The notes beneath the pieces were generated by a model. The model was not told where the DNA came from, did no database searches, and saw only the letters and a list, made by a program, of their open reading frames with translations. A DNA stretch of 64,000 bases, from NCBI RefSeq assembly GCF_988242995.1, contig NZ_OZ547043.1. One strand, given 5' to 3'. Below, one piece after another: positions 42,234 to 46,190 of the stretch (position 1 is its first letter; the number at the start of each line of letters is the position of its first letter). The position numbers and the translations under genes are program-made.

Positions 42234-42244
42234 GCATTTTATTA

Positions 42245-42280
42245 CGCCGGATTTGACGCACAACGCATCTTATCCGGCGC
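42245..42280. repeat. REP-like palindrome between convergent loiP and speB
   Basis: cgccggat...atccggcg arms. Confidence 0.4.
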
Positions 42281-43201
42281 TTACTCGCCCTTTTTCGCAG
42301 CCTGAATATACAGCATCTCCAGCGCCAGCGTCGCCGCAGCCAGAGCGGTGATTTCCGACTGATCGTATGCCGGAGCCACTTCCACTACGTCCATCCCAAC
42401 AATGTTGAGATCTTTCAGGCCGCGTACCAGTTTAATAGCGCGATCGGAGGTCAGGCCGCCAATTACTGGCGTACCGGTTCCCGGCGCGAAAGCAGGATCC
42501 AGGCAGTCGATATCAAAGGTCAGGTAAACCGGCATATCACCCACAATCTGTTTCACTTGGGCGATAACGTTATCCACGCTGCGATCGTTCACCTGGCAGG
42601 CGTCCAGCACGGTAAAGCCGTTGTCTTTATCGAACTCAGTACGAATACCAATCTGCACGGAATGATTCGGGTCGATCAGACCTTCTTTCGGCGCGGTATA
42701 GAACATGGTGCCGTGGTCAAATTCACAACCGTTCGCATAGGTGTCGGTGTGGGCGTCAAAGTGTACCAGCGCCATTTTGCCGAAATGCTTCGCATGAGCA
42801 CGCAGCAGCGGCAGCGTAACAAAGTGGTCACCACCGAAGGAGAGCATACGCTTACCGGCAGCCAGCAGCTTCTCGGCGTGCGCCTGCAGCTTCTCGCTCA
42901 TCTCACGGGCATCTCCGAAGGCATATACCAGATCGCCGCAGTCCACCACGTTCAGGCGCTCACGCATGTCGAAATTCCACGGGAAGCGGTTGTGTTCCCA
43001 GGCCAGATTCGTCGAAACCTGACGGATAGCAGCCGGACCGTGGCGTCCACCCGCACGACCAGAAGTGGCCATATCGAACGGCACGCCAGTAATCACCCAG
43101 TCAGCATCGCTGTCATATGGCTGGAAGTTCATCGGCAGGCGTAAAAAACCAAAGGCGTTGGAAACCAGTGAGTTATCGTATTGATGACCTAAGGTGCTCA
43201 T
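42281..43201 (-). CDS. speB: Agmatinase, 306 aa
   Basis: [43 protein letters not shown]... matches SpeB. Confidence 0.95.
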
Positions 43202-43336
43202 GGATGGACTCCTATTACAAAGTCGATATAAAAAAACCCTTCCGCGTCGTTAGGCCCGACGAGGAAGGGTTGGATTTGCGAAACACAAGTTTGCGCTAAT
43301 TATCGCCTTAAATGGACGAGGCATCAAGCGAGGTTG

Positions 43337-44068
43337 CTATTTCCGACACGGTGGCGGCGCATAGCCATTGTTGTCCGCCGGAAAGGCTTGTCCAGAGCAC
43401 GGCGGCAGCGCGTTTTGCGCCGGGCCTTGTAATTCAAAGGCGGCAAAGCCGATTACACCGGTATTACGCACATCGCCTTGCGCCGAATTGGCTGCGTAGG
43501 AATCAGCAACGTTGGCGAACTGAAAAGCCGCTTCGGTATGTTTATCTTTGCGGAATCCTTTAATCGCTAACGAATCTCCGGCATTCACAATATAGCCGTT
43601 GTTATTCAGCGAACCTTGCTTGCCGTTCAGCACATCCAGGCCATCAACCGTAGCAACGATCTCGTAGTTGGTATTACGACTGTAATTGCGGACATATAAT
43701 TGATAATTCATTCCTACTCTGGCATGGACAATATAGCGTGGTTCATTATTTGACGAATCATAAACCCGCGTAATAGGTAGAGAATTAAAATTACCATCGC
43801 GAATAGCATATTCAAGTTCGTTAATACGAATGCTATAAACGCGGTCGTAGCCCGAAGGAACAGTAGTCGAATAACTAATAACGATCATCTCTGCCGGATC
43901 GCGCCAGACTCGTTCAGCAGATACGCCCTGAACCGATGAGTGCACATCCCCACCCCAGGCGGTGCCGACATTGCCTGATGCACTGCTATTATACTGCGCA
44001 TTACTGGAACAACCGGCCAGCAGCACGGCTAATGCTATCAACGCGCTACGTACTTTCCATTTTTTCAT
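43337..44068 (-). CDS. Lipoprotein of unknown function, 243 aa
   Basis: GAGGGAA Shine-Dalgarno; signal peptide with lipobox MKKWKVRSALIALAVLLAGCSS; no family recognised. Confidence 0.6.
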   Translation of the reverse strand: MKKWKVRSALIALAVLLAGCSSNAQYNSSASGNVGTAWGGDVHSSVQGVSAERVWRDPAEMIVISYSTTVPSGYDRVYSIRINELEYAIRDGNFNSLPITRVYDSSNNEPRYIVHARVGMNYQLYVRNYSRNTNYEIVATVDGLDVLNGKQGSLNNNGYIVNAGDSLAIKGFRKDKHTEAAFQFANVADSYAANSAQGDVRNTGVIGFAAFELQGPAQNALPPCSGQAFPADNNGYAPPPCRK

Positions 44069-44149
44069 AACCGTTCCCTCTGCATTTAATTAATGCAGCG
44101 ATTGTAGGGGGATTATTTAATAAGAAAAGCAGCTAAATTATTTTTAAGA

Positions 44150-44196
44150 ATATATAAAAAGAAAGCGGGCCGATTTACGTAAATAAATCGACCCGC
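44150..44196 (-). terminator. Intrinsic terminator downstream of speA
   Basis: About 13-bp-arm hairpin gcgggtcgatttatttacgtaaatcggcccgc followed by a T-rich run on the minus strand. Confidence 0.6.
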
Positions 44197-44213
44197 CAGC
44201 GGAATAATCTTAA

Positions 44214-46190
44214 TTATTCATCTTCAAGATAGGTATAACCGTACAAACCTGCCTCGAACTCTTCAAGGAACTGTTGTTGCAGTTCAGCATCAAGATCGGT
44301 TTTCTTCACTTGATCACGGAACTGGGTTAACAACGTTTTCGGATCGAGCTGTACATATTGCAGCATATCCGCCACGGTATCGCCTTCGTCAGACAGTTCT
44401 ACTTCTACGCTGCCGTCAGGGAAGACGAACACGTCAACCGCTTCGGTATCACCGAACAGGTTGTGCATGTTGCCGAGGATCTCCTGATATGCGCCGACCA
44501 TGAAGAAACCGAGCATCGGCGGATTCTCTGGATCGTACTCCGGCATTGGCATTGTCGTGGCAATACCATCACCATCAATATAGTGATCAATAGCACCGTC
44601 AGAGTCACAGGTAATATCCAGCAGCACAGCGCGGCGTTCCGGCACTTGATCCAACCCTTCCAGCGGCAGAACCGGGAACAACTGGTCGATCCCCCACGCA
44701 TCCGGCATCGACTGGAACAGCGAGAAGTTGACGTACATTTTGTCCGCCATACGTTCCTGCAGCTCGTCGATAATCGGACGATGAGCACGGTTTTGCGGAT
44801 CCAGCTGCTTTTGCACTTCATGGCACATGCTCAAATAAAGCTGCTCAGCCCATGCGCGTTCTTGCAGGCTAAAGGTGCCGGAAGAGTAGCCGATATGAAT
44901 ATCGTGCAGATCCATCTGGCTGTCGTGTAACCATTCACGCAGAGAACGGCGAGTTCCCGGTTCGTGCATCTCCTGCCAGGTTTCCCACATGCTTTGCAGG
45001 GCGCGCGGTGCGTCTTCTGCAGGTGCGGTCGGCACCGTGTATTCGTTACGTTCCACGCCGATGATATTGGACACCAGCACGGTGTGATGCGCAGTCACCG
45101 CACGACCCGACTCGGTGATTACTGTCGGATGTGGCAGACCATTTTCTTCACACGCATCACCAATCGCCCAGATGATGTTGTTAGCGTATTCATTGAGGCC
45201 GTAGTTCACCGAACAGTCGGACTGCGAACGGGTGCCTTCATAGTCCACGCCCAGACCGCCGCCGACGTCGAAGCACTGAATATTGACGCCCAGCTTGTGC
45301 AGCTCAACATAGAAACGCGCGGATTCACGAACGCCTGTCGCGATATCGCGAATATTCGCCATCTGCGAACCGAGGTGGAAGTGCAGCAGTTGCAGGCTGT
45401 CGAGACGCCCGGCTTCACGCAGCGTTTCAACCAGTTGCAGTACCTGAGTCGCCGCCAGGCCGAACTTCGATTTTTCCCCGCCGGAGGACTGCCATTTACC
45501 CGAGCCCTGCGACGCCAGACGTGCACGCACGCCCAGACGAGGAACGACATTCAGACGTTCTGCTTCATCCAGCACAATGGCGATTTCTGACATCTTCTCA
45601 ATGACCAGATAGACCTTGTGCCCCATCTTCTCGCCAATTAATGCCAGGCGGATATATTCGCGGTCCTTATAACCGTTGCAGACGATGACGCTACGGGTCA
45701 TGCCAGCATGTGCCAACACCGCCATCAACTCCGCTTTGGAACCGGCTTCCAGGCCCAGCGGTTCGCCCGAATGAATCAGGGACTCAATCACGCGGCGGTG
45801 CTGATTAACTTTGATCGGATAAACGAGGAAGTAATCGCCGTTATAGCCGTAGGATTCCCGCGCACGTTTGAACGCGGCGTTAATAGAACGCAAACGGTGC
45901 TGCAGGATCTGTGGGAAACAGAACAGTGCAGGCAGACGCTGGCCCTGTGCTTCACGAGTTTTCACTAACTGCGCGAGATCGACGCGAGCTTCCGGGACGT
46001 CCGGGTCCGGGCACACGCTAATGTGGCCCAGCTCGTTAACGTCATAGTAGTTATTGCCCCACCAGGCAATATTGTAAGTACGCAGCATCTTGCTGGCTTC
46101 CTGGGAGCTCATTGCAACCTCCTGCATGGAGCGTAGTACACCGTGTTCGCCCGCTGACGAAGGCAAACCCATAGACATGTCGTCAGACAT
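44214..46190 (-). CDS. speA: Biosynthetic arginine decarboxylase, 658 aa
   Basis: [45 protein letters not shown]... matches SpeA. Confidence 0.95.

Follow-up and report, generated by a model that had tools for sequence, protein, structure and literature searches.

LpoA and LpoB are outer-membrane lipoproteins carried on flexible tethers. A protein of similar layout is encoded between speA and speB, in the polyamine locus of a 64,000-nucleotide stretch of DNA (RefSeq assembly GCF_988242995.1, contig NZ_OZ547043.1; hereafter the window). Like LpoA and LpoB, it has Sec and Lol signals, no Asp at position +2 and a disordered tether of variable length before a globular domain, and it is the product of a stand-alone gene. 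No sequence or fold relation to LpoA and LpoB was found, however, and the tether of the E. coli protein is short (12–14 residues). Unlike the murein lipoprotein Lpp/OprI, the protein has no alanine-zipper coiled coil, and the models NF040598 and NF011925 match only its residues 8–30, at expectation values (E) of 0.1–0.3. Our reading, to which we assign a probability of roughly 0.6, is that the gene is ancestral, is transcribed independently and codes for an outer-membrane lipoprotein of a large uncharacterised proteobacterial family, and that it was kept at speA–speB in the sampled Enterobacteriaceae and lost in about one third of E. coli, including K-12.

The coding sequence occupies positions 43337–44068 on the minus strand of the window, with an ATG start, a TAG stop at 43337–43339 and 243 codons, and is flanked by speB (42281–43201) and speA (44214–46190). 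The product is annotated in RefSeq as a “hypothetical protein” (WP_032201625.1); the surrounding stretch is 100% identical to E. coli H1827/12, where the product bears the same name. A first-pass annotation of the window, made from the letters alone, had described here a lipoprotein of 243 residues with a good Shine-Dalgarno sequence and a clear lipobox, and all of these were found in place. The Shine-Dalgarno sequence read from the DNA is GAGGG at 44076–44080 (minus strand), 7 nt before the ATG, and appears in the aligned orthologues as (A/G)GGGA or AGGA. Pairwise Nei-Gojobori ratios of nonsynonymous to synonymous substitution (dN/dS) against orthologues were 0.07–0.13 (0.13 for O157:H7, 0.07–0.08 for other Escherichia, 0.085 for Salmonella and 0.10 for Klebsiella), with a length of about 243 codons kept across the genera compared. 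One word-indexed search returned 290 homologues at E<=1e-3, and a profile search of 1.84 billion representatives returned 4223 clusters at E<=1e-3 and 3277 at E<=1e-10. Given such dN/dS values and so many homologues and clusters, the open reading frame (ORF) lies far beyond chance; on the evidence of these comparisons it is a real gene under strong purifying selection. The gene had been called an orphan, a description that does not survive the finding of a large family across Proteobacteria.

The locus was then compared across E. coli, as the first-pass annotation had proposed. It had given speA and speB as adjacent in K-12 and about 140 bp apart; the spacing measured in MG1655 is 137 bp, and no gene lies between. 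Among 5426 complete E. coli genomes, 3550 (about 65%) carry the lipoprotein gene at full length, while 1867 (34%) have the K-12-type junction. This empty allele is nearly invariant, mostly at 100% identity. A few E. coli have copies disrupted by IS1 (H10) or truncated (P0023, 174 residues, 448 members).

Beyond E. coli the gene was found at the same place. In Klebsiella the orthologue lies directly downstream of speA and upstream of speB, and in Salmonella it lies downstream of speA, with a GntR/dehydrogenase island next to it. Alignment revealed the same speA terminator upstream of the gene, and the speB promoter, leader and start downstream of it, in Escherichia whittamii, two Escherichia sp., Citrobacter, Klebsiella spallanzanii and an Enterobacter-labelled isolate. 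The flanks from Phytobacter and Kosakonia align only in part; neighbour clusters common to nine Enterobacteriaceae genera (including these two and Kluyvera) agree with the synteny. Protein identity declines with taxonomic distance, from 94–95% in other Escherichia to 57–75% in other genera. The gene had been described as inserted between speB and speA; orthologues beside speA at this very site in Escherichia whittamii, the two Escherichia sp., Klebsiella, Citrobacter, the Enterobacter-labelled isolate and Salmonella contradict that. Because this site is shared with other species and genera, the presence of the gene is ancestral and its absence, as in K-12-type E. coli, derived.

The segment in which the window differs from K-12-type E. 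coli spans 43279–44213, 935 bp against 60 bp in K-12, which retains only a diverged copy of the speB promoter. The 77 bp adjoining speB are identical in both alleles, and speA and speB themselves differ by 0–6%. A second indel lies on the other side of speB, where the convergent 3′ ends of loiP and speB are 205 bp apart in K-12 (L094 6673–6877) and 47 bp apart here (42234–42280), so that K-12 has 158 bp extra.

Signals in the flanking DNA suggest that the gene is a transcription unit of its own. On its upstream side, as had been claimed, lies the intrinsic terminator of speA, a 15-bp stem followed by a T-run (44164–44197, minus strand). It is conserved across genera with compensatory changes and has no counterpart in the K-12 allele; a terminator scan of the K-12 speA–speB spacer called none. 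Between this terminator and the lipoprotein ATG the best-conserved element is a candidate −10 hexamer, TACAAT, at 44101–44106 (minus strand), found in 4–5 genera as TACAAT, TACCAT, TACTAT or TACACT. There is no good −35 element; the C at −13 presumably recalls sigma-S-type promoters. We infer that this element belongs to the gene's own promoter. In the 5′ leader, between the putative −10 and the Shine-Dalgarno sequence, there is a perfect 19-nt palindrome, CTGCATTAATTAAATGCAG (44080–44098, minus strand), present in Escherichia only. It might serve as an operator or, as a 5′ hairpin, partly mask the Shine-Dalgarno sequence; we take it not to fit ARG, NsrR, PurR or CRP boxes.

On the downstream side, a sigma70-type promoter, TTGATG-17-GATAAT (43299–43327, minus strand), starts 9 nt past the lipoprotein stop codon. 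The CTTG and GATAAT of this promoter do not vary among 12 sequences from six or more genera, and in K-12 the corresponding position, directly after the speA stop, is taken by TTGAAT-17-GATAAT. Most simply, this would be the speB promoter. It is followed after about 20–25 nt (43228–43327, minus strand; also L094 7830–7925 and L006 6790–6850) by a hairpin of 14 pairs (−24.4 kcal/mol) and U7 at 43228–43271 (minus strand), which ends 26 nt upstream of the speB ATG and is conserved in Escherichia, Klebsiella, Citrobacter and the Enterobacter-labelled isolate. An Rfam search of the locus, including this hairpin, gave no match. The hairpin is likely the 3′ end of lipoprotein transcripts, a speB attenuator, or both. 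The arrangement looks like an attenuator whose leader is too short for a riboswitch or a leader peptide, and lipoprotein transcripts probably end at the hairpin or partly read through it. Since a conserved −10 element lies before the lipoprotein gene and the speB promoter follows its stop codon, membership in an operon with speB is not needed; co-transcription is possible and would be required for the expression of neither gene. The ancestral locus would thus comprise three units, speA, the lipoprotein gene and speB, and the K-12 “speAB” arrangement, which has no speA terminator, would be a product of loss.

The sequence of the protein carries clear lipoprotein signals. The N-terminus, MKKWKVRSALIALAVLLAG followed by CSS, consists of a basic n-region and a hydrophobic core, then the lipobox with its Cys20, and carries Ser at +2; the layout MKKWKVR-SALIALAVL-LAG-C20 fits the pattern [LVI][ASTVI][GAS]C. 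The signal peptide (residues 1–19) and lipobox (L17-A18-G19-C20; 44009–44020) are encoded at 44009–44068 on the minus strand. Cys20 is invariant in alignment A2 and is among the residues conserved in at least 90% of a set of 135 diverse family representatives that are 28–45% identical to the E. coli lipoprotein. A pattern search found the lipobox in 117 of these 135, with Asp at +2 in none of the 117. In Enterobacteriaceae, lipoproteins with Asp at +2 are not sent to the outer membrane; Ser rather than Asp at this position predicts that the protein is sorted there.

The mature protein had been described as rich in Asn, Tyr, Ser and Gly. This holds for Asn (10.3%), Ser (9.4%) and Tyr (6.2%), compared with 3.2, 5.5 and 3.4% in the neighbouring enzymes; Gly (8.9% versus 8.4%) shows no real enrichment. 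The Pro- and Cys-containing C-terminal tail that had been quoted, PPCSGQAFPADNNGYAPPPCRK, matched letter for letter. This tail (residues 221–243; 43340–43408, minus strand) is predicted to be disordered, with a predicted local distance difference test (pLDDT) score below 60, and the alignment reveals that F-P-x-D and Y-A-P-P-P are conserved in it. Two Cys flank these motifs in Enterobacteriaceae and a few others; in the protein encoded here they are Cys224 and Cys241, and Cys also occurs at residue 20.

A structure prediction, also proposed in the first-pass annotation, gave a confident all-beta domain. The AlphaFold2 model, built with 55 homologues, has a pLDDT of 82.4 and a predicted template modelling score of 0.78, with about 14 beta-strands over residues 35–213 (43430–43966, minus strand) and disordered tether (residues 19–30) and tail (residues 220–243). 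The predicted globular region, delimited by the model and by conservation, holds all the residues invariant in the 135 representatives: R53, Y122, G171, R173, F182 and G204. Besides Cys20, those at least 90% conserved are T36, G39, S44, P58, Y66, N128, E136, D142, G143, D145, Y159, F172, Y191 and F229. Apart from the lipid-attachment Cys20, no His or Cys is conserved in the 135, and no hydrolase-family motif was recognised among their conserved residues. The distance from the lipid-bearing Cys to the first conserved motif, G-T-x-W-G-E, ranges from 12 to 271 residues across the family, with a median of 45.

The description of the family as unrecognised proved accurate. No Pfam family matches the lipoprotein at E<=1, NCBIfam matches are confined to its signal peptide, and no sequence in the PDB matches the family profile at E<=10. 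PADLOC models of anti-phage defence gave 0 matches, and PHROGs gave only signal-peptide-level matches to spanin and Cor models (E 0.006 or weaker). Homologues in the source databases are all named “hypothetical protein”, “lipoprotein”, “outer membrane lipoprotein” or “membrane protein”. A Foldseek search of the PDB gave as its best match the MATH domain of SPOP at E 0.02 (template modelling score 0.26), with none below that value; judging from the model, the fold is a beta-sandwich without a specific solved relative.

Three likenesses to described proteins bear on this fold and family. First, MATH/TRAF-C and Ig-like beta-sandwiches (SPOP, USP7, TRAFs, the MSP domain, fungal ToxA/Avr2) were the top structural matches by two methods; they share an antiparallel beta-sandwich, and peptide binding has been described for these folds, the best PDB match being the one at E 0.02. 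Second, when Pfam was run over the family profiles and members, nothing beyond signal-peptide similarity was found save weak matches to DUF7918 (PF25534), itself of unknown function. Its N-terminal part is matched by five proteins of the permuted phage-like subfamily described below and by a single one among the 135 lipoprotein-type members; the best score is 25.3 bits (E 1.9e-5), and none reaches the gathering cut-off of 27 bits. For the lipoprotein encoded in the window, no DUF7918 match was obtained at E<=1. A literature search returned no paper that mentions DUF7918.

Third, hypothetical proteins of jumbo phages (AUZ95445.1 of Agrobacterium phage Atu_ph07, QIG70639.1 of Rhizobium phage RHph_I1_18 and a protein of Sinorhizobium phage Phosso) contain the same three modules as the lipoprotein: a core (Y-x-I-x-x-x-N ... 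V-D-G-x-x-V-x-D-G ... G-V-I-G), a G-x-x-W-G-E-S strand and an N-P-F-P ... P-P-P tail. Searches of phage genomes with tblastn gave 31–35% identity at E 7e-10 to 8e-14, in four matching records of which two are the same phage, Atu_ph07, and the best match in a viral structure library was the unnamed entry A0A7S5RDU0 (Foldseek E 3e-6). Unlike in the lipoprotein, the modules of the phage homologues follow a circularly permuted order (core, G-x-x-W-G-E module, tail), and the two translated proteins have no signal peptide or lipobox. Such permuted versions of the family occur in some bacteria (P0241) and in phages that infect Agrobacterium, Rhizobium and Sinorhizobium; metagenomes contain a large permuted subfamily as well (213 matches). 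The homologues in Rhizobium and Agrobacterium phages, the Agrobacterium phage being a 490-kb jumbo phage, lie at L095 2456–3181 and L096 2519–3310.

From established rules, the precursor would be exported by Sec, acylated at Cys20 by Lgt, LspA and Lnt and, with Ser rather than Asp at +2, transferred by Lol to the outer membrane. In the periplasm a Cys224–Cys241 disulfide would close the Pro-rich tail into a loop. The variable tether, the beta-sandwich with two invariant Arg and the Pro-rich tail suggest a binding protein. We propose, with low confidence, that a flexible tether, 12 to more than 250 residues long depending on the family member, suspends the beta-sandwich from the outer membrane, that this domain binds an anionic envelope component or a peptide without acting as an enzyme, and that invariant R53 and R173, amid conserved Tyr, Asp, Glu and Asn, may contact the ligand. 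The tail may act within the protein or between copies, because it is kept in phage homologues that have no signal peptide and are not expected in the periplasm. The lipoprotein would not be an enzyme of the polyamine pathway and would be dispensable.

Several observations weigh against the reading of an ancestral, independently transcribed outer-membrane lipoprotein gene lost from K-12. The GC content at third codon positions (GC3) is 0.47, against 0.62–0.63 in speA and speB, despite the ancient position; this is consistent with weak codon adaptation and low expression, and equally with an old foreign origin. The 60 bp of K-12 (L094 7876–7935) share only about 63% identity with the 58 bp immediately downstream of the lipoprotein stop codon here (43279–43336), a divergence equal to that of the Klebsiella or Citrobacter sequence, while the flanks are 94–100% identical. 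A consensus promoter scan did not call a promoter for the lipoprotein gene. The phage homologues without a signal peptide imply that the function of the domain is not intrinsically periplasmic, and a literature search gave neither a paper nor an experiment on the lipoprotein. A simple clean deletion as the origin of the K-12 allele was rejected, since it does not fit 60 bp of diverged sequence; the empty allele is possibly imported or an old haplotype.

To characterize the gene in other lineages, 80 loci were fetched from named genomes, ORFs within 6 kb were clustered and Pfam was run on the neighbours in about 22 independent contexts. The loci included Enterobacteriaceae, Providencia, Proteus, Gilliamella, P. 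aeruginosa PA7, Neisseria, Kingella, Variovorax, Acidovorax, Ralstonia, Burkholderia, Paracoccus and Inquilinus. No neighbour or partner is conserved across these lineages; the homologue stands alone amid housekeeping genes. It lies by hisD and hisC in Comamonadaceae, metJ/metB in Providencia, thrS/recO in Gilliamella, queF in Kingella, mltG in Neisseria, ahcY in Ralstonia, an S41 protease gene in Saezia, hybE in Enterobacillus and ynfD/ynfC beside a speG-like gene in Trabulsiella. In the Comamonadaceae his operon the order is hisD-X-Y-hisC, where Y (L009 6844–7233, L010 6824–7171) encodes a secreted protein of 115–130 residues with a signal peptide, two Cys (one internal and one near the C-terminus) and no Pfam match. 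Y was considered as a conserved partner of the lipoprotein and set aside, being restricted to Comamonadaceae. Two records (the L023/L073 pair) are probably mislabelled. “Chryseobacterium sp. 18061” has the same match statistics as Citrobacter sp. 18056 (63% identity, E 1e-101), and the upstream beta-lactamase-like neighbour in “Mycobacterium sp. KBS0706” is shared with Inquilinus, suggesting a proteobacterium.

The contexts bear on the idea that the protein is a member of the polyamine locus, co-transcribed with speB, that binds or sequesters putrescine or agmatine at the envelope through an acidic and aromatic pocket. The order speA-X-speB is stable across Enterobacteriaceae, and no terminator separates the lipoprotein stop from the speB promoter. 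The conserved Trp, Tyr, Asp and Glu resemble, as we take it, the polyamine-binding pockets of PotD/PotF. Four contexts adjoin polyamine or Met/S-adenosylmethionine (SAM) genes, a count that was made post hoc and is a lead rather than evidence; among the copies concerned are those near metJ/metB in Providencia and near ahcY in Ralstonia. In Trabulsiella guamensis (L012/L038) a 40%-identical paralogue lies between ynfD (DUF1161) and a split ynfC (UPF0257) and adjoins a SpeG-like acetyltransferase gene and ynfB, a second independent closeness to a polyamine gene. Most of the contexts, however, are unrelated (the his operon, thrS/recO, queF, mltG, the S41 protease, hybE, fumarase and others), a conserved promoter of its own precedes speB, and K-12-type strains produce putrescine without the gene. 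Moreover, the two invariant charged residues are both Arg, which favours an anionic over a cationic ligand. We consider a polyamine-binding role improbable.

The protein might instead be a periplasmic decoy or inhibitor of an exogenous envelope-degrading enzyme, akin to MliC, PliG or orphan immunity proteins, and we give this idea a similarly small chance. The stand-alone gene is patchy within the species and dispensable, its product, an outer-membrane lipoprotein, has a small domain rich in beta-structure and surface motifs that are sharply conserved, and one context adjoins a PoNi immunity gene. Against this, the searches gave no resemblance to MliC, PliC, PliG or Ivy in sequence or fold, the PADLOC models gave no match, strong purifying selection and stable synteny are unlike those of arms-race genes, and the homologues in phages are devoid of a signal peptide.

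Recent insertion of an orphan gene between speA and speB in the lineage of this strain, as a small horizontally acquired islet, is very unlikely. Such an origin would account for the absence of the gene from K-12 and 34% of E. coli, for its GC3 below that of the flanking genes and for the variability of the site in Salmonella, where the GntR/dehydrogenase island follows the gene. But the gene occupies the same site in Escherichia whittamii, the two Escherichia sp., Klebsiella, Citrobacter and the Enterobacter-labelled isolate and lies beside speA in Salmonella, its divergence follows taxonomy, and the empty allele is nearly invariant, as a derived state should be. No boundary repeats, tRNA or integrase were found at the locus, and “plasmid” matches turned out to be chromosomes or megaplasmids typed as non-mobilizable. 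These negatives and the cross-genus synteny speak against a genomic islet or mobile element.

It is hardly credible that the protein is an Lpp-like tether joined covalently to peptidoglycan by a C-terminal Lys. Lpp ends in ...YRK, and the endings ...CRK in E. coli and ...YRK in Variovorax/Comamonadaceae are reminiscent of it. Yet only 4 of the 135 family members have a terminal Lys; the last residue is Arg in 51 and Pro, Tyr or Asp in others. Endings vary within Enterobacteriaceae (CRQ, CKR, CRR, CQK), and the model is all-beta, without a coiled coil. The rarity of the terminal Lys rules out this mode of attachment. Finally, that the ORF is spurious or decaying and without function has next to no chance of being right: its loss in a third of E. 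coli, the IS1-disrupted and truncated alleles and the low codon bias would fit, but it is contradicted by the selection data, with dN/dS of 0.07–0.13, 243 residues kept across genera and thousands of clusters with invariant residues.

The ORF is already annotated as “hypothetical” in thousands of genomes and is therefore not new as an ORF; a family definition, structure or function was not found in the databases and literature searched. K-12, the basis of much of E. coli envelope biology, does not have the gene; it is carried by about 65% of the E. coli sequenced, O157:H7 and bloodstream isolates among them. The Salmonella, Klebsiella and Citrobacter genomes examined likewise encode this selectively maintained, predicted outer-membrane lipoprotein. 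It is a “dark” envelope protein, overlooked because K-12 is without the gene. Ancestrally, a strong terminator closes speA, and speB is served by a promoter of its own with a leader hairpin, which makes the contiguous speA–speB of K-12 a deletion product; findings on speAB co-regulation made in K-12 may not transfer to most strains. A bolder proposal, quite unlikely in full, is that the protein is the E. coli representative of a family of more than 4000 clusters, a beta-sandwich without a true PDB relative that binds a specific anionic envelope polymer or a polyamine- or SAM-related ligand, and that its loss created the K-12 “speAB operon”. The polyamine- or SAM-related ligand is raised because of the repeated closeness to speA/speB, speG, metJ and ahcY, which is a hint. 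If the proposal is true, loss of the lipoprotein would have removed a layer of envelope physiology from the model strain.

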